From Pseudomonadota bacterium (GTDB lineage: Bacteria; Pseudomonadota; Gammaproteobacteria; Xanthomonadales; Xanthomonadaceae), in NCBI GenBank assembly GCA_018240435.1, contig JAFEFT010000002.1:35262-99261 (forward strand): a stretch of 64,000 nucleotides of DNA, in the 5' to 3' direction. Positions within the stretch are counted from its first letter, which is position 1; each line of letters opens with the position of its first letter. The position numbers and the translations under genes were made by a program. The notes under the pieces are model-generated. The model saw nothing but the letters and a program-made list of their open reading frames with translations. It was not told where the DNA came from and ran no database searches. Positions 5,629-56,553 of the stretch are shown in pieces.

Positions 5629-6633
5629 ATGACCCACACGATCGCAGTGATCCGCGGCGACGGCATCGGCCCCGAGATCATGGACGCCACCTTGCATGTG
5701 CTCGACGCGATGCAACTCGGCTTGAACTACGAGTTCGTCGAGGCCGGCATGAGCGCGCTGGAAAAGCACGGCAACCTGCTGCCGCAGGCCACCCTCGATG
5801 CCATCGCCAGGCACCGCATCGCGCTCAAGAGCCCGCTGACCACGCCGGTCGGCGGCGGCTTCGCCTCGATCAACGTCGAGCTGCGCAAACGCTTCGACCT
5901 GTACGCCAACGTCCGCCCGGCGATCAGTTTTCCGAACACGAAAGCGCGCTACGCCGACATCGACATCATCACCGTGCGCGAGAACACCGAAGGCGCCTAC
6001 ATCGGCGAGGGCCAGCAGGTGTCCGCCGACGGCGCCACCGCCACCTTGCAGCAGAAGGTCACCCGCAAGGGCTCCGAGCGCATCGTCCGTTACGCTTTCG
6101 ACATGGCGCGCCGGATCGGCCGCAAGAAAGTCACCATCGTGCACAAGGCGAACATCCTCAAGTCGACCTCGGGGCTGTTCCTGAAGGTCGCGCGCGAGGT
6201 GGCGGCGCAGTATCCGGACATCGCCTGCAACGAGATGATCGTCGACAACACCTGCATGCAGCTGGTGATGCGGCCCGAGCAGTTCGACGTGATCGTCACC
6301 ACCAACCTGTTCGGCGACATCGTTTCCGACCTGTGCGCCGGCCTCGTCGGCGGCCTCGGTCTGGCGCCGGGCGCGAACATCGGTGCCGATGCGGCGATCT
6401 TCGAGGCCGTGCACGGCTCGGCACCGGACATCGCCGGCCAGGGCATCGCCAATCCCTGCGCGCTGCTGCTGGGCGCGGCGCAGATGCTCGATCATCTGGC
6501 GCTGCCCGGCGACGCGGCGCGCTTGCGCAAGGCGATCCGCAGCACGCTGGCCGATCAGGATGCGCTTACCCCCGACCTCGGCGGCAGCGGCAACACGATG
6601 GGTTTTGCCAGGGCAATTGCGACGCGGGTGTGA
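5629..6633 (+). CDS. icd: isocitrate/isopropylmalate dehydrogenase family enzyme, most like NAD-dependent isocitrate dehydrogenase
   Basis: A 334-aa ORF with IRGDGIGPEI, RENTEGAYIGEG, NLFGDIVSDL and HGSAPDIAGQGIANP motifs. Confidence 0.8.
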   Translation: MTHTIAVIRGDGIGPEIMDATLHVLDAMQLGLNYEFVEAGMSALEKHGNLLPQATLDAIARHRIALKSPLTTPVGGGFASINVELRKRFDLYANVRPAISFPNTKARYADIDIITVRENTEGAYIGEGQQVSADGATATLQQKVTRKGSERIVRYAFDMARRIGRKKVTIVHKANILKSTSGLFLKVAREVAAQYPDIACNEMIVDNTCMQLVMRPEQFDVIVTTNLFGDIVSDLCAGLVGGLGLAPGANIGADAAIFEAVHGSAPDIAGQGIANPCALLLGAAQMLDHLALPGDAARLRKAIRSTLADQDALTPDLGGSGNTMGFARAIATRV

Positions 6634-6866
6634 GGGCGGAGGACAGAGGACAGAGGACAGAAGACAGAAGACAGAGGACAGAAGACAGAGGACAGAAGAC
6701 AGAGGACAGAAGACAGAGGGCAGAAGACAGAGGGCAGAGGACAGAGGACAGAGGACAGAGGACAGAGGACAGAGGGCAGAGGGCAGAGGGCAGAGGGCAG
6801 AAGGCAGAAGGCAGAGAGCAGAGAGCAGGAGGCAGAGGGCAGGAGGCAGAGGGCAGCAGGGCAGGG
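6634..6866 (+). repeat. tandem heptanucleotide array (GGACAGA)n of about 33 units, degenerating 3-prime into GGGCAGA/AGGCAGA/GAGCAGA variants
   Basis: Read directly from the sequence. The array starts at the base after the icd TGA (6631-6633) and is a pure purine+C tract on the + strand. It generates artefactual RTEDRGQ / SSVLCPL repeat ORFs in several frames. Confidence 0.95.
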
Positions 6867-6949
6867 GACGGAGCGCGGGCGGGCTGGAATTTCCGGTTTC
6901 CATTCGTGACAGCGGCGCCGCGCGCGTCCGCATGCGCGGTCGCCTGTCT

Positions 6950-7984
6950 TCAGCCAGCGTTCTCCAGCATCTGCCGCCAGCGCGGTGGCATCCAGCCGCG
7001 CATCCTTTCGCCCAGCGCCGCCTCGTTGCGCTGCCAGAGCACGCCCACGGCGATGATCGCCAGCCCGATCGCGGTGAGCGCGAACGGGAACAGCAGACTG
7101 TCCTTGAACACGCTGTAGGCCAGATGCCCCAGATACCCGGCCACGCCCAGCCCGCCGAAAACGACGAACACCCGCCGCGCCAGTGCCGCGCCGACTCCGA
7201 TCAGGCCGAGGTTGATGAGCAGGTAAATCACCTTGCGCCATTCTTCCTTCGAGTCCATCGAGGTCAGCCCGCCCCAGAACGCCATCGTGCCGAACAGGTA
7301 CAGCCAGAAGGCGAAGTCGGGATCGCGGCGGGTGCGCAGGTCCACCGCCAGCGCCAGCAGCAAGGTCAGCAGACCGCAGGCGACGGAGACATATTCGCGC
7401 TTGCGCCATTCCGGGTCGTCACCGAACAGGAAGGGGGTCAGGTCCATGCTCATGTACCACAGCGTCACCGCGATCGGCATCACCATGAACGGCAATCGGT
7501 AGCGATACAGCAGGACGGCGCCGCCGGCCAGCGTCGCCAGCTCCATGACGATCCAGCGCCAGTCGATCAGACGGTGATAGTCGCGGTAGCTCTTGCCGTC
7601 CTCGGCCCAGAAGCCCAGTCCGTGCTGCAGCCCGTAGACCGCCAGCGGAATCAGCACCACGACGAAGGTGGCGGTGATGCCGGCCGGCACCTGCAGTTGC
7701 TTGCCACGCAGAAAGAACTCGGTCAGCCACAGCCCGGCGATGCCGTAGCCGAGGGCGATGGCGAACAAGCCCCAGCCACCGAAGCTCTCCCAGCCCAGGG
7801 TCATGAACAGGCTCATCGCGCCGATCGCGATCAGGCCGCCGAGGTAGTAGAGGATATGGGTGAAGCCGAAGCGCGCGTGCTCGCTCTGGCCGGCGGCGAG
7901 GAAGGCCCACAGGCCGTCGGCCTGATCCGGGCGGAGGATGCCGGCGCCGACGGCATCGTCCAGACGCTTGCGATTGATGTCCAT
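6950..7984 (-). CDS. DUF2157-like polytopic membrane protein
   Basis: A 344-aa ORF with non-shadow composition. A soluble N-terminal segment (MDINRKRLDDAVGAGILRPDQADGLWAFL) is followed by about 9 hydrophobic helices. Confidence 0.6.
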   Translation of the reverse strand: MDINRKRLDDAVGAGILRPDQADGLWAFLAAGQSEHARFGFTHILYYLGGLIAIGAMSLFMTLGWESFGGWGLFAIALGYGIAGLWLTEFFLRGKQLQVPAGITATFVVVLIPLAVYGLQHGLGFWAEDGKSYRDYHRLIDWRWIVMELATLAGGAVLLYRYRLPFMVMPIAVTLWYMSMDLTPFLFGDDPEWRKREYVSVACGLLTLLLALAVDLRTRRDPDFAFWLYLFGTMAFWGGLTSMDSKEEWRKVIYLLINLGLIGVGAALARRVFVVFGGLGVAGYLGHLAYSVFKDSLLFPFALTAIGLAIIAVGVLWQRNEAALGERMRGWMPPRWRQMLENAG

Positions 7985-15490: not shown

Positions 15491-16236
15491 CTGCCGATCG
15501 CGTTCTTGCCGGCGAGATCGCCCTCGTCACCGGTGCCAGCCGCGGCATCGGTGCCGCCATCGCCGACGAACTGGCAGCGCGCGGTGCCACGGTGATCGGC
15601 ACCGCCACTACCGAGGCCGGCGTCGCCGCCATCGGCGCGCGACTGGCAGCGCACGGCGGGGCAGGGCGGCTGCTCGACGTCCGCGACGGCGCCGCCATCG
15701 ATGCCCTGATCGATGCGGTCGGCAAGGAGTTCGGCGCGGTCTCCATCCTCGTCAACAACGCCGGCATCACCCGCGACAACCTGCTGATGCGGATGAAGGA
15801 CGACGACTGGCAGGCGATCATCGACACCAATCTCACCTCGGTGTTCCGCGCCAGCAAGGCGGTGATGCGGGCGATGATGAAGGCGCGCCGCGGCCGCATC
15901 GTCAACATCGCCTCGGTGATCGGGGTGACTGGCAATCCCGGCCAGGCCAACTACGCCGCGGCGAAGGCCGGCATCATCGCGTTTTCGAAATCGCTGGCGC
16001 GCGAAATCGGCTCGCGCGGCATCACCGTCAATGTCGTTGCGCCCGGTTTCATCGACACCGACATGACCCGCGCCCTGCCCGAGGAAGGCAAGCAGGCGAT
16101 GCTGGCGCAGATCGCCCTGGGGCGTTTCGGCGATGCCACCGACATCGCCCGCGCCGTCGCCTTCCTCGCCGGCCCCGACGCCGCCTACATCACCGGCCAG
16201 ACCTTGCACGTCAATGGCGGGATGTACATGGGGTGA
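15487..16236 (+). CDS. fabG: 3-oxoacyl-ACP reductase
   Basis: Taken from Met57 of track ORF 15319..16236 ([22 protein letters not shown]), with an ATGA overlap with the fabD stop. It has the NYAAAKAG catalytic motif and ends HVNGGMYMG. Confidence 0.95.
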
Positions 16237-16295
16237 GGACGGAGGACAGAGGACAGAGGACAGAGGACAGAGGACAGAGGACAGAGGACAGAGGG
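16237..16295 (+). repeat. tandem heptanucleotide array (GGACAGA)n of about 8 units, followed by short GTATTCG x2 and TCCCGAY x3-4 heptamer runs (to about 16355)
   Basis: Read directly from the sequence. It starts at the base after the fabG TGA (16234-16236), in sense orientation, within the fabG-acpP spacer. Confidence 0.95.
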
Positions 16296-16447
16296 TATTC
16301 GGTATTCAGTTGTCTGTGGGCCGGCTTTCCCGACTCCCGATTCCCGACGCCCGGCTCCAGCCAACCAACCGTGTTGCCGGCGGAACTTTCCACTACAATA
16401 TGCCGCCGCGCCGCCGGCCGGCATTCAGAACCAAACGAGGCCAATAC

Positions 16448-16687
16448 ATGAGCACCATCGAAGAACGCGTCAAGAAGATCGTCGTCGAGCAGCTGGGCGT
16501 GAAGGCGGAGGACGTCACCAACAACGCCTCGTTCGTCGATGATCTCGGCGCCGACTCGCTCGACACGGTCGAGCTCGTGATGGCGCTGGAAGAGGAATTC
16601 GACTGCGAGATCCCGGACGAGGACGCCGAGAAGATCACCAACGTGCAGCAGGCGATCGATTACGTGAAGGCGCACGTCAAGGAGTGA
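16448..16687 (+). CDS. acpP: acyl carrier protein
   Basis: This is the last 79 aa of track ORF 16133..16687: [18 protein letters not shown]...[20 protein letters not shown] (phosphopantetheine Ser in DSLD). Confidence 0.97.
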
Positions 16688-38699: not shown

Positions 38700-39185
38700 G
38701 ACGATGGGTTGCGCGGTGCGCAACCCATCCTGCAGGCTGACTCTTTTCCGGCGCGGTGCGCAACCCCTCCTGCGGGATGACCCTTCTCCCTTCGGGAGAA
38801 GGTGGCGCGCAGCGCCGGATGAGGGGTCGTCGGCTCGTGGAGTTGGCGGGCGCTTCGGCCCCTCACCCCAACCCCTCTCCCGGTGGGAGAGGGGCTTTGT
38901 CCTTCTCCCTTCGGGAGAAGAGCCTGCCCCCGCGAAGGCGGGGGTGGCGCGCAGCGCCGGATGAGGGGCCGTCGCGCCGTGGAGTTGGCAGGTGCTTCGG
39001 CCCCTCACCCCAACCCCTCTCCCGGTGGGAGAGGGGCTTTGTCCTTCTCCCTTCGGGAGAAGAGCCTGCCCCCGCGAAGGCGGGGGTGGCGCGTAGCGCC
39101 GGATGAGGGGCCGTCGCGCCGTGGAGTTGGCAGGTGCTGCGGCCCCTCACCCCAACCCCTCTCCCGGTGGGAGAGGGGCTTCAGG
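38700..39185. repeat. mosaic of palindromic REP-type units, including about 2.7 tandem copies of a 142-bp composite repeat
   Basis: The phase marker cccctcacccc recurs at 38859, 39001 and 39143, giving a period of 142. Each unit contains the hairpins ccctctccc-ggt-gggagaggg, ccttctccc-ttc-gggagaagag and ctgcccccgc-gaag-gcgggggtgg. Two gcggtgcgcaaccc..tcctgc.gg.tgac units lie upstream at about 38712 and 38752. Confidence 0.9.
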
Positions 39186-40288: not shown

Positions 40289-41740
40289 TCAATCCATCCT
40301 GATGCAGATGTTTTTCGGTTCGGTGAAAAAGCGCATCGCGTCCTCGCCACCTTCGCGGCCGAGCCCCGACTGGCCGACGCCGCCGAATGGCGTGCGCAGG
40401 TCGCGCAGCAGCCAGGTGTTGATCCAGACGATGCCGACGTGCAGGCCGGCGGCGATGCGGTGGGCGCGGTCGAGCCGTTGGGTCCACACGCTGGCCGACA
40501 GTCCGTAGTCCGTGGCGTTGGCCAGCGCCAGCGCGTGGGCGTCGTCGTCGAACGCTTGCAGGGTGACGACCGGGCCGAAGATTTCCTCGGTGTTGCTGCG
40601 GCAGTCTGCACCCAGCCCGTCGATCACGGTCGGCGCGATGAACCAGCCGCCTTCGCATCCGAGCGGCTGCAACGATTCGCCGCCGCACAGCACGTTGCCG
40701 CCTTCGGCGCGAGCGAGCGCGAGGCAGGCCAGCACCTTGTCGAAATGCGCGCGTGACACCAGCGGGCCGAGGTCGGTTTGCGGATCGAACGGACCGCCGA
40801 CGCGCAGACGGCGCACGCGCGCGACGAAGGCCTCGCGGAAGGCGTCGAAGACGCGGCGCTCGATCAGGATGCGCGAGCCGCACAGGCAGATCTGGCCGCT
40901 GTTCTGGAACGCGGCGCGGACCACGGTGTCGAGCATCCGCTCGCGCTGGCCGGCGTCCTCGAAGGCATCGGCGAACACCACGGTGGCATTCTTGCCGCCC
41001 AGTTCGAGTGACGTTTTTTTCAGCGCCGGCCCGCAGTGCGCGGCGATCTGCTGCCCGACCGCGGTGCTGCCGGTGAAGCTGACTGCCTTGATGCGCGGGT
41101 GTTCGACCAGCGCCTTGCCGACCACCGGCCCGAGCCCGTGGACGATGTTCAGCACGCCCGGTGGAAAGCCGATCTCGCGCGCGAGTTCGCCGAGCATCCA
41201 CGCCGTCACCGGGGTGATTTCCGACGGTTTGGCGACCACGCAATTGCCGGTCGCCAGCGCCGGGGCGATCTTCCATGTGAACAGGTACAGCGGCAGATTC
41301 CACGGGCTGATGCAGCCGACCACGCCCAGCGGCTGGCGCAGGGTGTAATTCAAGCCGGCCTGGCCGTGGTGGGACTGGCTGGCGAACTGCTCGGCGGCGG
41401 CGGCGAAGAAACGCAGGTTGGCGACCGCGCGCGGGATCTCGACCTGGCGGGCGAGCTTGAGCGGTTTGCCGCCATCGTGCGACTCGGCCTGCGCGAAGTC
41501 GTCCACGCGCGCTTCCAGCGCATCGGCCAGGCGCCGCAGCCAGTGCGCACGGGCTTCGTTGGCCAGCCCCGACCACGCCGGGAATGCGGCCTGCGCGGCG
41601 TGCACCGCGGCATCGACATCGGCGGCGCTGCCGGCCGGGCAATGCGCGAATACCTCGCCGGTGGCCGGATCGTGGACGGCCAGCGAATCGGCGCTGGCGC
41701 GGGCCTGGCCGGCGATCAGATGGGACAGATGGAGGGGCAT
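40289..41740 (-). CDS. nbaE: 2-aminomuconate-6-semialdehyde dehydrogenase (aldehyde dehydrogenase family)
   Basis: Taken from Met35 of track ORF 40289..41842 (MPLHLSHLIAGQ...). It has WNLPLYLFTWKIAPALATGNCVVAKPSE, LELGGKN, GQICLCGSR and EEIFGPV motifs. Substrate assignment rests on operon context. Confidence 0.8.
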   Translation of the reverse strand: MPLHLSHLIAGQARASADSLAVHDPATGEVFAHCPAGSAADVDAAVHAAQAAFPAWSGLANEARAHWLRRLADALEARVDDFAQAESHDGGKPLKLARQVEIPRAVANLRFFAAAAEQFASQSHHGQAGLNYTLRQPLGVVGCISPWNLPLYLFTWKIAPALATGNCVVAKPSEITPVTAWMLGELAREIGFPPGVLNIVHGLGPVVGKALVEHPRIKAVSFTGSTAVGQQIAAHCGPALKKTSLELGGKNATVVFADAFEDAGQRERMLDTVVRAAFQNSGQICLCGSRILIERRVFDAFREAFVARVRRLRVGGPFDPQTDLGPLVSRAHFDKVLACLALARAEGGNVLCGGESLQPLGCEGGWFIAPTVIDGLGADCRSNTEEIFGPVVTLQAFDDDAHALALANATDYGLSASVWTQRLDRAHRIAAGLHVGIVWINTWLLRDLRTPFGGVGQSGLGREGGEDAMRFFTEPKNICIRMD

Positions 41741-41785
41741 GGGGGCGGAGAGAGCAGGGGGCGGGAAGCAGGAGGCAGGGGTGAG
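41741..41785. repeat. heptamer-periodic purine tract on the + strand (GCAGGRG-type), which is a pyrimidine tract on the operon mRNA directly abutting the nbaE start codon
   Basis: The sequence is gggggcggagagagcagggggcgggaagcaggaggcaggggtgag. It belongs to the same variant family as the 3-prime tail of the icd array (6800-6866), but in opposite orientation to the adjacent 41831-41893 array. Confidence 0.75.
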
Positions 41786-41830: not shown

Positions 41831-41893
41831 TCTTCTGCCCACTGCCTACTGTCCACCCTTTGTCCTCCGTCCTCTGTCTTCTGTCCTCTGACC
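41831..41893 (-). repeat. tandem heptanucleotide array (GGACAGA)n of about 9 partly degenerate units, in sense orientation relative to the minus-strand SDR gene
   Basis: The minus strand reads TGA-GGTCAGA-GGACAGA-AGACAGA-GGACGGA-GGACAAA-GGGTGGA-CAGTAGG-CAGTGGG-CAGAAGA. It starts at the base after the SDR stop codon (41894-41896). Confidence 0.9.
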
Positions 41894-42682
41894 TCACAGC
41901 GACCGCGTCCTGCCGCCATCCACCGGCAGGTTGATGCCGGTGATGTAGGACGCCGCCGGCGAGGCCAGGAAGGCCACCGCGGCGGCGATTTCGGCAGGTT
42001 CGGCGAAGCGACCCATCGGCACCTCCGATTCCATTTCCGCCGCGACCGTGCCGATGCTGCCGCCGGACTTGCTCGCGCGCGCGGCGATGATCTGCTCGAT
42101 CCGCGGCGTGCGGGTCGACCCGGGCAGCACGTTGTTGACGGTGATGCCGTGCGGCGCCAGTTCACGGGCCAGGGTCTTGGCCCAGCTCGCGACCGCGCCG
42201 CGGGTGACGTTGGAGACGCCGATGCCGGGGATGGGCTCTTTCACCGAAGTCGAGATCACGTTGACGATGCGGCCGTAGCCAGCTGCGATCATGCCGGGAA
42301 TCACTGCTTCGGCCAGCGTCTGATTGGCGAGCAGATGAGCGCGGAAGGCGGCGAGAAACGCATCCTCGCGAGCACCGCGCACCGTTCCGGGCGGTGGCCC
42401 GCCGCTGTTGTTGACGAGCACATGGACGGCGCGCTCGGCAACCAGCGCATCGACTTTCGCGCGCAGGTCGGCGGTGTCGCCGGCATCGGCGGCGAGCCAG
42501 CCGTGGCGCTGGGCTGCATGTGCGCGCGGCAATTGCCCGGCGAGCGATTCCAGTACCTCCGCGCGGCGCGCCAGCAAGGTCACGTCGGCACCGAGTGCGG
42601 CCAGTTCGATGGCGCAGGCCAGGCCGATGCCTTGCGAGGCGCCGCCGACGAGGGCGTGATGGCCGGTGAGGTCGAGTTGCAT
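41894..42682 (-). CDS. SDR family oxidoreductase
   Basis: A 262-aa ORF with ALVGGASQGIGLA (TGxxxGxG-like), VLVNNSGG, and a C-terminal ASPAASYITGINLPVDGG. Confidence 0.8.
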   Translation of the reverse strand: MQLDLTGHHALVGGASQGIGLACAIELAALGADVTLLARRAEVLESLAGQLPRAHAAQRHGWLAADAGDTADLRAKVDALVAERAVHVLVNNSGGPPPGTVRGAREDAFLAAFRAHLLANQTLAEAVIPGMIAAGYGRIVNVISTSVKEPIPGIGVSNVTRGAVASWAKTLARELAPHGITVNNVLPGSTRTPRIEQIIAARASKSGGSIGTVAAEMESEVPMGRFAEPAEIAAAVAFLASPAASYITGINLPVDGGRTRSL

Positions 42683-43120: not shown

Positions 43121-43585
43121 GCTGGAAGTGGAACGGTTGCCGTCCGTGGTTCGACAGGCTCACCACGAACGGTGCTTGGGGAATGCGGGACAGGCGCATC
43201 AGGGACGGCGATGGGCTCACCACGAGCGGCCTCTCCCTTCCACCGTTCGCCCTGAGCCTGTCGAAGGGTGAGCGGGCGAGGGGTTGATCGTGGTTCGACA
43301 GGCCTGTCCTGAGCTTGTCGAAGGGCTCACCACGAACGGTGCTTGGGGAATCCGGGACAGGCGCATCAGGGACGGTTGCCGTCCGTGGTTCGACAGGCTC
43401 ACCACGAACGGTGCTTGGGGAATGCGGGACAGGCGCATCAGGGACGGTTGCCGTCCGTGGTTCGACAGGCTCACCACGAACGGTATTCGGGGGAATGCGG
43501 TGCTTGGGGGAATGCGGGACAGGCTCACCACGAACGGTTTTCGGGGAAATGCGGGGTTGGCTCGCCACGAACGGAATGGAGTGCA
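43121..43585. repeat. array of palindromic repeat units (72-bp unit present 3 times, plus one 108-bp-family unit and degenerate copies)
   Basis: The 72-bp unit gacggttgccgtccgtggttcgacaggctcaccacgaacggtgcttggggaatgcgggacaggcgcatcagg starts at 43131, 43371 and 43443. A ccaccgttcgccctgagcctgtcgaagggtgagcgggcgaggggttgatcgtggttcgacagg unit lies at about 43240-43300 and matches the 53883-54300 family. Confidence 0.9.
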
Positions 43586-53834: not shown

Positions 53835-54305
53835 GGGCTCACCAAGAACGGGTCGGCGCGCCCGCCACGAGCGGCTTCGCCCTTCCGCCATTCGCCCTGA
53901 GCCTGTCGAAGGGTGAGCGGGCGAGGGGTTGATCGTGGTTCGACAGGCTCACCACGAACGGCAGTGGGCTCACCACGAACGGACTTGCCCTTCCACCGTT
54001 CGCCCTGAGCCTGTCGAAGGGTGAGCGGGCAAGGGATTGATCGTGGTTCGACAGGCTCACCACGAACGGCAATGGGCTCACCACGAATGGCCTTGCCCTT
54101 CCACCGTTCGCCCTGAGCCTGTCGAAGGGTGAGCGGGCAAGGGATTGATCGTGGTTCGACAGGCTCACCACGAACGGCAATGGGCTCACCACGAACGGCC
54201 TTGCCCTTCCACCGTTCGCCCTGAGCTTGTCGAAGGGTGAGCGGGCGAGGGACTGGTCGTGGTTCGACAGGCTGTCCTGAGCCTGTCGAAGGGCTCGCCG
54301 CGAAT
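53835..54305. repeat. about 4 tandem copies of a 108-bp composite palindromic repeat
   Basis: The phase marker ttcc(a/g)cc(g/a)tt recurs at 53883, 53991, 54099 and 54207. The unit contains ccaccgttcgccctgagcctgtcgaagggtgagcgggcaaggg and gatcgtggttcgacaggctcaccacgaacgg hairpins. It translates to the familiar FDRLRANG / SLSKGE shadow peptides. Confidence 0.92.
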
Positions 54306-54970: not shown

Positions 54971-55534
54971 TCAGACGCGACCGGCAAACTCGCCCGTCAC
55001 CGTGTTCACCCACACCTTTTCGCCGGTGGCGATGTATTCGGGCACCTGGATTTCGATGCCGGTGTTCAGGCGCGCCGGCTTGGGGCGCTTGGTGGCGGTA
55101 CCGCCCTTGAGCTCGGGCGCGGTCTCGACCACGGTCAGCGCGACCGAGGTCGGCAGCAGCACGCCAACCGGGGCGTCGTCGATGATCTGCACGTAGCAGC
55201 CTTCCATGTCCTCGGTGATGAAATGCGCGGCGTCGCCGATGGCGTCCGGATCGAGTGCATAGGGCGTGTAATCCTCGGCATCGAGGAACACGAAGGCCTC
55301 GCCATCCTTGTACGAGAAGTTGGCCTGCCGGCGCACGAGGTCGACCTCGCGCAGTTCGTCGTCGGCATCGAAGCTGGCGTCGAGTTTGTTGCCGCCTGGC
55401 ACCGAGTACATCACGAAGCGGAAGCGGACGTTGCCGCCGCGACCCTGCGGCGAGCTGCGCTCGATGTCGCGGATTTGGTAGACGCCATTGTTGTATTCGA
55501 CGACGGTGGCTTTCTTGATTTCGGAGGCTTTCAT
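54971..55534 (-). CDS. yeiP: elongation factor P-like protein YeiP (EfpL)
   Basis: Taken from Met67 of track ORF 54971..55732: [40 protein letters not shown]...[11 protein letters not shown]...[13 protein letters not shown]. It is collinear with E. coli YeiP. Confidence 0.85.
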
Positions 55535-55782
55535 GGGAGGTCCGGGAGGCGGGAATCGGGAGGCGGGAGGTATCTCCTTCCGCCGCGAGAAGGTGCTGCG
55601 GCTGATGCGGATGCGGGCAGCCTGCGCCGGGTATCGGGCTTTGTCGGAGGCACGGTCCTGACCCGCGGCGCGATTCGGGGGCAGGACACCTGTGTTCGCT
55701 GGCTGGAAGAAACAATCGGGTTTTCGTGCCACGATAAAGCGTTGGCGCGCGCTGTCATCGATTCTCGATTGCCGATTCCCGG

Positions 55783-56553
55783 TTACTTCGGCGCCAAGCG
55801 CACCGCGCCATCCAGCCGAATCGTTTCGCCGTTCAAATAGCGGCTGCGCAGGATGAAGGCGACGAGGTCGGCGTACTCCTCCGGTTTGCCAAGGCGCGAC
55901 GGGAACGGGATCGACGCGGAGAGCGATTTCTGCACGTCGTCGGGCATGCCATCGACCATCGGTGTCCAGAAGATGCCCGGTGCCACCGCCATCACCCGGA
56001 TGCCGAAGCGCGCCAGCTCGCGCGCCATCGGCAAGGTCATGCCGACCACGCCGCCTTTGGACGCCGAATACGCGGCCTGGCCAATCTGGCCCTCGAAGGC
56101 GGCGACGCTGGCGGTGTTGACGATCACTCCGCGCTCGCCGTCCTCGCCCGCCTCGTTGTGCTGCATCAGCGCAGCGGCGGCCTTGGCGACGTTGAAGCTG
56201 CCGATCAGGTTGACGCCGACCGTCATCGAGAAGTTCTTCAGCGGCATCGCCGCGTCGCGGCCGAGCACGCGCCCGGCGCCGAGGATGCCGGCGCAGTTGA
56301 CGGCGACGTTGAGCCCGCCGAGAAAGTCCTTCGCGGCGGCGACGTTGGCCTGCACGCCGGCTTCGTCGGTCACGTCGGTGCGGAAATAGCGCGCGTTGGC
56401 ATCGCCGAGCTGCGCGACCGCGGCCGCGCCCTTGTCGTCGTTGACGTCGAACAGCGCGACCTTGCCGCCATGCGCGACCAGATGCGAGGCCACGGCGAAG
56501 CCGAGTCCGGATACGCCGCCGGTGACGATGGCGCGGGTGGAGTTGAGATGCAT
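55783..56553 (-). CDS. 3-hydroxyacyl-CoA dehydrogenase, SDR type (HSD17B10 / 3-hydroxy-2-methylbutyryl-CoA dehydrogenase-like)
   Basis: A 256-aa ORF with [56 protein letters not shown]. Confidence 0.8.

Follow-up and report, generated by a model that had tools for sequence, protein, structure and literature searches.

Three tandem arrays of a 7-nt unit, GAGGACA (GGACAGA in another phase), lie in the window, the 64-kb stretch of DNA analysed here, and each begins on the stop codon of a different gene: icd, fabG and a gene for an SDR-family oxidoreductase (Table 1). Direct reading and Tandem Repeats Finder agree on the arrays, which are where the sequence-only reading had put them, and a two-unit match scan over both strands of the window returned these three arrays only; the identities given to the upstream genes are borne out by profile matches. 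The genes neighbouring the arrays are housekeeping genes. The next gene after icd is convergent, while acpP and a gene for aldehyde dehydrogenase lie downstream of the fabG and SDR arrays, respectively.

Table 1. Genes, heptamer arrays and other heptamer tracts in the window.
Feature	Position	Strand	Remarks
icd, isocitrate dehydrogenase, 334 aa	5629..6633	+	NF006529, 603 bits; residues 1-333 on profile 2-334/335; TGA at 6631-6633
Heptamer array 1	6632..6866	+	~33 units, GAGGACA and transition variants; unit 1 GAGGGCG opens with GA of icd TGA; Tandem Repeats Finder 6639-6873, period 7, 33.4 copies
Single unit AGACAGG	6943..6949	-	directly 3' of TGA (6952-6950) of convergent gene
Gene convergent with icd	6950..7984	-	
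fabG, 3-oxoacyl-ACP reductase	15493..16236	+	NF004197, 412 bits; residues 2-246 on profile 2-248/249; TGA at 16234-16236
Heptamer array 2	16235..16297	+	GAGGACG, GAGGACA x7, GAGGGTA; starts with GA of fabG TGA; Tandem Repeats Finder 16235-16294, period 7, 8.6 copies
(GTCGGGA)4.4	16328..16358	-	TCCCGAC on + strand; second heptamer array of fabG-acpP spacer
acpP	start at 16448		
Aldehyde dehydrogenase gene	ATG at 41740	-	
G-rich heptamer-like tract	41741..41783	+	5' end adjoins aldehyde dehydrogenase ATG; Tandem Repeats Finder 41741-41776, period 14
Heptamer array 3, degenerate	41835..41895	-	starts with GA of SDR TGA (41896-41894); Tandem Repeats Finder 41857-41895, period 7, 5.6 copies
SDR-family oxidoreductase	41894..42682	-	NF006212, profile 3-261/263 by residues 2-261; Pfam adh_short
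EF-P-family gene	ATG at 55534	-	
(CCTCCCG)4-5	55535..55570	-	+ strand G-rich; G-rich-strand 5' end adjoins ATG of EF-P-family gene
GGGAATC GGCAATC GAGAATC GA	55758..55780	-	2 nt past TAA of second SDR gene
Second SDR gene	55783..56553	-	

The units are exactly 7 nt long and run head to tail, as in the heptameric SSR/VNTR class of repeats. The earlier description of about 33 tandem heptamers after icd is right as to a period-7 array, but exact GAGGACA accounts for only 11 of the 33 units, the remainder being transition variants (GAGGGCA in eight units, GAAGACA in six, plus others), and the SDR array is degenerate, with about five good units (GAGGTCA, GAGGACA, GAAGACA, GAGGACG, GAGGACA, AAGGGTG, GACAGTA, GGCAGTG and GGCAGAA, in order). 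Unit variants are mostly purine transitions and are grouped in blocks. Inside the arrays, no stop codon occurs in any frame.

All three arrays stand in one register with the upstream gene. The junction reads GTGAGG in 3/3 and, in the phase GAGGNCN, the GA of the TGA supplies bases 1-2 of the first unit (GAGGGCG, GAGGACG and GAGGTCA), so that each array overlaps the stop codon by 2 nt on the sense strand; as had been noted, purine-rich strand and sense strand of the upstream gene coincide in every case. The G ahead of the TGA is a GC3-biased last codon base and therefore gives no evidence that the motif reaches further upstream. Under uniform placement within its own intergenic region and in either orientation, the chance that all three arrays begin at the first base on the sense strand is ~1e-7, or ~3e-6 with a tolerance of ±2 nt. 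Two arrays are G-rich on the plus strand and one on the minus strand; since GC skew is positive over the whole window, the orientation of the minus-strand array follows the gene and not the direction of replication. As in the heptameric class, the three window arrays have no leading- or lagging-strand preference and are oriented by the neighbouring ORF.

Comparison with orthologous loci indicates that the stop codons were there without the arrays. At icd orthologs of 78-84% identity (80 loci fetched, 75 readable), the array is absent in 75/75, and the array-less genes mostly end in ..SRV, SRL or SRI plus stop, at the same residue as here, with the stop often followed by a hairpin and T-run terminator. 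The icd, FabG and SDR proteins all extend to the ends of their family profiles. Since the orthologs end alike and the profile ends are reached, the TGA is native and the array simply shares its last two purines. This disposes of the earlier suggestion that an insertion supplies the stop codon, because the array-less orthologs have their own; of the related idea that the stop codon is part of the element, what stands is that its GA forms the start of unit 1, but the TGA is native and the preceding G adds nothing in its favour. The arrays were added in particular lineages, each 3' of a native TGA codon.

The perfect runs are unstable, whereas the degenerate array is stable. By whole-unit indels between near-identical strains, the icd array has 32 units in the window and 36 and 35 in two other contigs, and the fabG array has eight or nine units depending on the contig, though these contigs encode identical proteins. 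The imperfect SDR array is identical in six independent contigs. The proposal of a hypermutable SSR is thus upheld by the strain comparison (icd 32/35/36 and fabG 8/9 units), which shows VNTR behaviour; like other members of the class, the arrays vary in copy number among related genomes and are not kept at orthologous loci.

Other heptamer tracts lie in the window. A single AGACAGG unit sits directly after the stop codon of the gene convergent with icd, possibly a proto-array or a product of chance; it pairs with the first units of array 1 in the predicted fold, which is not above shuffles. The fabG-acpP spacer holds (GTCGGGA)4.4, convergent with array 2 and ending just before a conserved block upstream of acpP that is probably a promoter. 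G-rich tracts adjoin the start codons of the aldehyde dehydrogenase and EF-P-family genes, the latter constant in copy number and spacing in 10 contigs. The run at 55758..55780 is a short stretch of the published Xanthomonas GGGAATC heptamer family (PMC4692102). An Rfam search of the whole window returned one tRNA only, with no match at the arrays, and promoter and terminator scans around the three arrays found neither, including no intrinsic terminator (GC-rich hairpin plus U-tract) in the three array regions.

Stop-codon anchoring is real and general across phyla. In 103 GGACAGA arrays from many phyla, with mirror placement as the control, the purine-strand 5' end has a sense-ORF stop no more than 12 nt away in 23 arrays versus 4 in the control (p=1.6e-4), and no more than 30 nt away in 34 versus 6 (p=4e-6); together with the ~1e-7 chance in the window, the 23 versus 4 confirms the earlier view that the phasing is not random. 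An opposite-strand ATG lies within 30 nt of 12 arrays versus 2 in the control. Nine of ten abutting ORFs tested are bona fide genes, of unrelated Pfam families, and inverted array pairs are convergent in six cases and divergent in none. The 5' end of the purine- or G-rich strand is pinned to an ORF boundary, usually the stop of the sense gene and sometimes an opposite-strand start. With placement defined as 0-50 bp from the stop on the coding strand, overlap allowed, the three window arrays are all intergenic with the G-rich-strand 5' end beside the 5' ORF. In small samples, polarity did not reach significance for other heptamer families in the fetched loci (n=21) or for viral arrays.

Across phyla, the median array has five units, and in 111 arrays variation within the unit is greatest in GGA, at positions 1-3, with CAGA as the conserved core; beyond a partial CAGA unit, no conserved flank or insertion-site motif was found at the arrays. 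The period itself stands out, with 239 period-7 arrays in the fetched loci versus 13-26 for periods 6, 8 and 9. We considered GGACAGA as a special, horizontally spread unit and rejected this, since in viral contigs it forms 15 stretches versus 20, 7, 8 and 5 for four control heptamers of the same composition; independent births are the simpler reading given these similar frequencies. A rule that the array stands between stop codon and terminator was also rejected, a canonical terminator being found within 150 nt of only 4 of 33 stop-abutting arrays.

The closest known systems are the G-rich heptameric SSRs GGGAATC of Xanthomonas and GGGGAYT of Nostoc (Rehm et al. 2015, PLoS One; PMC4692102). 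These are 7-nt head-to-tail units, nearly all intergenic, with the G-rich-strand 5' end near the 5' ORF (mean 28 nt vs 160 nt), convergent inverted pairs and no leading- or lagging-strand preference; their copy number differs among related genomes and their neighbours are ordinary metabolic genes. That an ORF-adjacent placement rule had already been published for this sister family in Xanthomonas (PMC4692102) was absent from the sequence-only reading. The arrays described here have in common with them the period, intergenic site, 5'-end polarity, convergent pairs and copy-number variation. They differ in having G2 rather than G3 runs, such that most units are unable to form a three-tetrad quadruplex, and in lacking the four-unit preference of the GGGAATC family (33, 8 and ~6 units here); moreover, the host is not a Xanthomonas species and the GGACAGA unit occurs in many phyla. 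With GAGGACA as the unit in place of GGGANTN with G3, and no four-unit preference, we do not assign the arrays to the GGGAATC quadruplex family sensu stricto.

Long SSRs with 5-11 bp units (LSSR5-11) occur in large, GC-rich, free-living bacteria (Mrazek et al. 2007, as cited in PMC4692102), and 7-bp intergenic VNTR loci serve in MLVA typing of Xanthomonas (PMC8002079). The heptamer period, intergenic position and stepwise whole-unit polymorphism are alike; these works, the former as represented in the paper citing it, treat the loci as markers or statistics and do not address stop-codon abutment of this unit. The TAACTGA direct repeats of Beggiatoaceae mostly precede start codons at close range, and each of their units contains a stop codon (PMC4679880). 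They too are tandem intergenic heptamers a few nucleotides from ORF boundaries and patchy across phyla, whereas the arrays here have a different unit, are placed after stop codons and are stop-free in every frame. Tandem intergenic heptamers near ORF boundaries, again patchy across phyla, are also known as the STRR heptanucleotide repeats of heterocystous cyanobacteria, which have different units.

We consider it probable that each tract is a heptanucleotide microsatellite (VNTR) of the heptamer-SSR class over-represented in Xanthomonadales and other large GC-rich genomes, with no dedicated trans-acting partner needed; the arrays add a member to a class that is known and functionally unexplained. 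Slipped-strand replication together with point mutation would yield whole-unit gain and loss and blocks of transition variants. The array would presumably be transcribed as the opening part of a 3' UTR or intercistronic spacer, where the T-free, C-poor purine orientation, without stop or start codon, hairpin or U-tract, may be the tolerated one. RNA in this orientation should load Rho poorly, which may be relevant to read-through from fabG to acpP and from the SDR gene to aldehyde dehydrogenase. A stop codon is a T with two purines behind it, and these purines can serve at once as the opening bases of a purine-rich unit; purifying selection on the protein would fix the array edge at the T. If copy number influenced expression, it would do so only incidentally. 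The part played by selection in orientation and anchoring is one that we infer; pure slippage by itself leaves the 5'-end-only pinning and the 7-nt preference unaccounted for, and the C-rich mRNA leader that results where an array abuts a start codon is a misfit with a simple 'Rho-proof spacer'.

Several other explanations must be weighed. The arrays could be strand-asymmetric punctuation for transcription, which we regard as unlikely: transcription into the ORF would give (UCUGUCC)n, a C-rich, G-poor and ideal Rho loading site that halts antisense or read-in transcripts, transcription out of the ORF would give Rho-resistant, G-rich RNA able to form G-quadruplexes or R-loops, and convergent array pairs would extend bidirectional terminator stems. 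In support of this, the antisense RNA would have a C content of 46% against 14% G, the icd array giving 91 YC dinucleotides, the G-rich strand is always directed away from the adjacent ORF at stop- and start-abutting arrays alike, every inverted pair is convergent, in some cases with a GC hairpin between the two arrays, and icd orthologs have intrinsic terminators where this genome has an array and no terminator. Transcript starts and stops are also commoner at G4-capable repeats than at controls (Rehm et al., PMC4692102). Yet only one of the three window arrays stands at a convergent junction, canonical terminators back few stop-abutting arrays (4/33), and a C-rich leader ahead of a start codon would dampen the very gene it precedes. 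In most units the G runs go no further than G2; the canonical quadruplex motif (G3N4 x4) occurs in one block only, at 6774-6797 (GGGCAGA x4), where four consecutive GAGGGCA units are present here but three in other strains. The arrays are not themselves intrinsic terminators, having no GC-rich hairpin and U-tract at the three sites (4/33 elsewhere, within 150 nt), nor REP/BIME or MITE elements, given a purine-only strand that cannot self-pair and no conserved flank. Phase-variation (contingency) SSRs, which switch expression from inside an ORF or between promoter or RBS elements, were also rejected, as the arrays follow stop codons, the fabG array lies ~75 nt upstream of the conserved block before acpP and the neighbours are housekeeping genes. 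It is scarcely credible that the arrays are artefacts of assembly or sequencing, or copies of a mobile element that went into stop codons; metagenome contigs do break frequently inside arrays, but the arrays recur with identical junctions in independent NCBI, ENA, JGI and Logan assemblies, and there are no terminal inverted repeats, target duplication, conserved flank or associated gene.

It is decidedly unlikely that single-stranded (A)GGA motifs of the transcribed tract sequester RsmA, or draw it to the icd, fabG and SDR mRNAs, with copy number as dose. All three arrays carry multiple GGA motifs (14, 9 and 5 in the icd, fabG and SDR arrays) in RNA predicted to be unpaired, and there is a precedent in RsmU, an RsmA-sequestering RNA of X. 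campestris that is produced by processing of the comEA 3' UTR (PMC7694677). The earlier statement that no Rsm sponge RNA is established in Xanthomonadales is thus out of date. The arrays share many GGA motifs with CsrB, RsmZ, RsmY and RsmU and, if transcribed as assumed, would resemble RsmU in being 3'-UTR-derived. The known sponges, however, have defined ends, present GGA in stem-loops and are conserved as genes or 3' UTRs, whereas the arrays are unconserved, variable in copy number between strains, missing at orthologous loci and predicted to be unstructured. Folds of the three spacers are not above shuffles (z = -0.3, +2.2 and -1.6), with the arrays essentially unpaired and no GGA in the hairpin loops of a structured RNA, and base composition accounts for the pairing that the SDR array seems to make with the C-rich leader of the following gene (z = -0.3). 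GGA is freely lost, being the most variable part of the unit next to the conserved CAGA in the 111 arrays and kept in only 14 of 33 icd units (lost in 19, including GAAGACA, GAGGGCA and others), and the variants have propagated; the arrays thus lack GGA under purifying selection as well as defined RNA ends. Neither a promoter or terminator of their own nor an Rfam CsrB/Rsm match was found, and the identical array type occurs in phyla with very different regulators. A Shine-Dalgarno-like standby array, holding 30S subunits or terminating ribosomes past the stop and feeding acpP and aldehyde dehydrogenase, is highly improbable. SD-like 4-mers (GAGG/GGAG/AGGA) number 38, 18 and 8 in the icd, fabG and SDR arrays, and a co-directional gene lies downstream of two of the three. 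But the gene after icd is convergent, leaving nothing to feed, the next start codon is 152 nt beyond the end of the fabG array and ~95 nt beyond that of the SDR array, and acpP is preceded by its own conserved block, the probable promoter, which lies downstream of array 2. GAAGACA-type units do not contain the motif, and SD-poor phyla, Planctomycetota and Bacteroidota among them, have the class as well. On balance, the sequence evidence speaks against both the CsrA-sponge and SD-standby ideas. Quite unlikely, too, is that the arrays form a functional, tunable VNTR rheostat on central metabolic genes with an anchoring rule common to many phyla, either as a 3'-UTR pad that holds RsmA/CsrA (or another single-strand RNA binder) or as a polar Rho/R-loop insulator. 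If the pad were true, copy number would set the amount of RsmA/CsrA held on icd and fabG-acpP transcripts; if the insulator were true, gene ends would be shielded from read-in transcription.

Few unexplained repeats are as abundant as heptamer microsatellites in Xanthomonadales, cyanobacteria and other large genomes, and the strict polarity that places their G-rich-strand 5' end at an ORF boundary has lacked a mechanism since its description in 2015. The window offers a clean example, in which three arrays share their first two bases with a native TGA. In practical terms, such tracts can be used as VNTR markers to type strains, and they make contigs break in metagenome assemblies. The cross-phylum count shows that the rule extends beyond Xanthomonas and beyond G3 (quadruplex) units. 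This makes a quadruplex explanation weaker and suggests a broader cause, candidates for which are mutational polarity or selection on untranslated RNA beside ORFs.

We demonstrate that the GAGGACA/GGACAGA heptamer arrays following icd, fabG and an SDR gene are of recent origin, show slippage-type instability and have a polarity anchored to the upstream ORF, independent of replication direction. In all three arrays, the GA of the TGA opens the first unit, and the sense strand is the purine-rich one. Assuming uniform placement within the three spacers, the chance of all three placements is about 1e-7, or about 3e-6 allowing ±2 nt. The abutment described in the sequence-only reading is real and clearly non-random. 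GC skew is positive over all 64 kb, indicating that the + strand is the leading strand throughout the window and, therefore, that the minus-strand SDR array is oriented by its gene and not by replication. Of the 33 icd units, just 11 match the consensus exactly, and the SDR array is degenerate; a two-unit scan of both strands revealed no further arrays of this family in the window.

Coordinates of the heptamer arrays, their upstream genes and other repeats in the window
Feature	Position	Strand	Remarks
icd	5629..6633	+	NF006529, 603 bits; TGA at 6631-6633
Array 1 (icd)	6632 to about 6866	+	about 33 heptamers: GAGGGCG, GAGGACA x3, GAAGACA x2, and so on
fabG	15493..16236	+	
Array 2 (fabG)	from 16235	+	GAGGACG, GAGGACA x7, GAGGGTA
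(TCCCGAC)4 array	fabG-acpP spacer		
REP-like palindromic tandem block	38801-39181		142 nt x2.7
Heptamer-like tract	41741-41783		G-rich on + strand, C-rich on sense; abuts ATG (41740, -) of aldehyde dehydrogenase gene
SDR gene	41894..42682	-	
Array 3 (SDR)	from 41895	-	GAGGTCA GAGGACA GAAGACA GAGGACG GAGGACA, then a few decayed units
REP-like palindromic tandem block	43324-43500		72 nt x2.4
REP-like palindromic tandem block	53865-54273		108 nt x3.8
C-rich heptamer tract (CCTCCCG)4-5	55535-55570 (region to 55580)	-	abuts ATG (55534) of EF-P-family gene
GGGAATC-type triple	55758-55780	-	TAAcc GGGAATC GGCAATC GAGAATC GA; 2 nt after TAA of second SDR gene (55783..56553, -)

The tracts behave as microsatellites. 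Among contigs from independent assemblies that encode an identical Icd protein, the icd array comprises 36 (L001), 35 (L002) or, in the window, 32 units, the differences being whole-unit indels within homogeneous runs. At fabG, contigs carry 8 or 9 units, and the imperfect SDR array does not differ among six. Unit variants are mostly purine transitions grouped in blocks, the pattern left by point mutation and subsequent local slippage. Copy number thus bears out the earlier suggestion of a hypermutable VNTR. Assembly breaks recur at these arrays, with many short-read metagenome contigs beginning or stopping inside them (L003, L004, L213, L019, L020, L025, L076, L088).

The proposal that the stop codon is itself part of the element did not survive comparison of C-termini. 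Of 80 icd loci obtained from metagenomes (78-84% protein identity), the stop was readable in 75, and none of these 75 carries an array after icd. Most end at the same residue with a stop of their own (...SRV/SRL/SRI), many with a classical hairpin and T-run terminator beyond it, and the Icd, FabG and SDR proteins align through to the ends of their family profiles. An array-supplied stop codon is therefore rejected, and the arrays are recent, lineage-specific additions against native stops.

Scanning GTDB species genomes for (GGACAGA)3 returned at least 119 stretches, with hosts among the matches listed in Planctomycetota, Verrucomicrobiota, Accumulibacter, Gallionella, Lysobacterales, Desulfobacterota, Actinomycetota and others. 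For the 103 arrays among the matches listed with sufficient flank on both sides, we recorded purine-strand stops that end an ORF of 100 codons or more near the array 5' end, with the opposite end as a mirror control. Such a stop lay within 12 nt in 23 arrays versus 4 in the mirror (p=1.6e-4), and within 30 nt in 34 versus 6 (p=4e-6). The stop overlaps unit 1 in any phase that keeps a stop (T followed by GAGGACA, GACAGA, AGACGGA, AAACAGA or GATCAGA), and 9 of 10 abutting ORFs encode identifiable proteins that are unrelated to one another, among them an ABC ATPase, Na/H exchanger, Nramp, acyl-CoA dehydrogenase and L,D-transpeptidase. The ATG of an opposite-strand ORF at the array 5' end is a second enriched setting (12 versus 2 within 30 nt, among the matches listed). 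Inverted array pairs within 200 nt of each other were convergent in six cases (L005, L028, L057, L061, L081, L096) and divergent in none; the two arms are separated by a GC hairpin in L028/L057 and in L061/L081, so that the arrays would extend a stem resembling a bidirectional terminator. The icd-array 5' junction, ...GGGCGGAGGACAGAGGACAGA, recurs after unrelated genes of distant phyla in L114 (Hyphomicrobium MAG), L108 (Kiritimatiellia MAG) and L081, the L114 junction being identical over 27 nt, GTGTGA included. CGGA-type first units are about threefold enriched at the 5'-most position.

GGACAGA is probably not a special element. The arrays have no common flanking sequence but a partial unit, and a viral collection held 15 stretches of (GGACAGA)3 compared with 20, 7, 8 and 5 for four controls of identical composition. 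Since the control heptamers are similarly frequent, independent births of purine-rich arrays most simply explain the wide distribution.

The best explanation, and in our judgement a reasonably probable one, is that these are microsatellites without a dedicated partner, which would persist only at places and in orientations that cause no harm. RNA of the sense orientation would have no U and little C and, therefore, no stop or start codon, hairpin or U-tract; Rho would be expected to load poorly, so that transcription could run on unimpaired into acpP or the aldehyde dehydrogenase gene. The 5' edge would be fixed by the protein-coding sequence that begins at the next base, and two bases can be shared since stop codons consist of a T and then two purines. 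This explanation accounts neither for pinning at the 5' end only nor for the preference for 7 nt. A strand-asymmetric transcription element, in which inward transcripts would carry a C-rich site for Rho loading and outward ones a quadruplex or R-loop, would agree with array polarity, convergent pairs and loss of the ancestral icd terminator, but specific support is weak and we regard it as unlikely.

Less likely still is that the transcribed tract acts as a candidate RsmA/CsrA sponge, although the three arrays hold 14, 9 and 5 GGA motifs and their RNA is predicted to be unstructured. Across 111 arrays, conservation within the unit is lowest at GGA, with CAGA as the core; GGA is gone from 19 of 33 icd units, the arrays are unconserved at icd orthologs and variable between strains, and searches of the three arrays for a promoter, terminator or Rfam match were all empty. 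The accompanying remark that Xanthomonadales have no established Rsm sponge is outdated, as RsmU derives from the comEA 3' UTR (PMC7694677). Shine-Dalgarno-like standby sites after stop codons are very improbable, given that the gene facing icd is convergent and that the arrays end 95-152 nt short of the next start codon.

The EF-P-family tract sits between a Shine-Dalgarno-like GGAAGGAG, about 36 nt from the start, and the ATG, a spacing unchanged in 10 independent contigs. No Shine-Dalgarno motif is visible at the aldehyde dehydrogenase tract, which forms with array 3 a convergent G-rich pair filling the spacer. The fabG-acpP spacer (16298-16372) has two unrelated alleles among contigs encoding identical AcpP (L207-L212); the sequence common to both, from CAACCGTGTTGCCGG (~16372), is probably the acpP promoter block, and the alternative allele has a duplicated AGGCTCATGTGTCGTTGGAA element. 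A single AGACAGG (region 6943-6952) lies directly 3' of the TGA of a convergent gene (6950..7984, minus strand) that has no family match; it may be a proto-array or chance, with about 0.07 such cases expected per window. The last two REP-like blocks have GTGGTTCGACAGGCTCACCACGAACGG in common. The icd/acpP and SDR genes, 25-35 kb apart here, lie on separate contigs in GCA_039807195.1 (JBDHQS010000012, JBDHQS010000006), so the window stems from another, less fragmented genome belonging to the same species or one very close to it.

The tracts add a new unit family to a widespread, already known heptanucleotide VNTR class. Further representatives of this class in the window are the GGGAATC-type triple, which is a short stretch of the published Xanthomonas family, the (CCTCCCG)4-5 and G-rich tracts at the two start codons, and the (TCCCGAC)4 array. 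GGGAATC repeats in X. campestris and X. citri, and GGGGAYT in Nostoc, are intergenic, 'almost exclusively' closer to the 5' neighbouring ORF (28 vs 160 nt), convergent without exception when inverted pairs, and lack leading-/lagging-strand bias; GGGAATC repeat length differs between the two species, neighbouring genes are ordinary and a search for function came up empty (Rehm et al. 2015; PMC4692102). Large GC-rich genomes have a general excess of heptamer SSRs (Mrazek 2007, as cited in PMC4692102), 7-bp intergenic VNTRs are the main basis of Xanthomonas MLVA schemes (PMC8002079), and period 7 was by far the commonest short period in the loci we fetched, even without GGACAGA arrays. The GGACAGA arrays share the polarity, convergent pairs, ordinary neighbours and replication-independence of the Rehm repeats, and sense-oriented stop abutment has already been reported for this sister family, from the same order of bacteria. 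The new point is, therefore, a modest one: the placement rule also holds in many phyla, and for a unit that, unlike GGGAATC, is unable to form a three-tetrad quadruplex.
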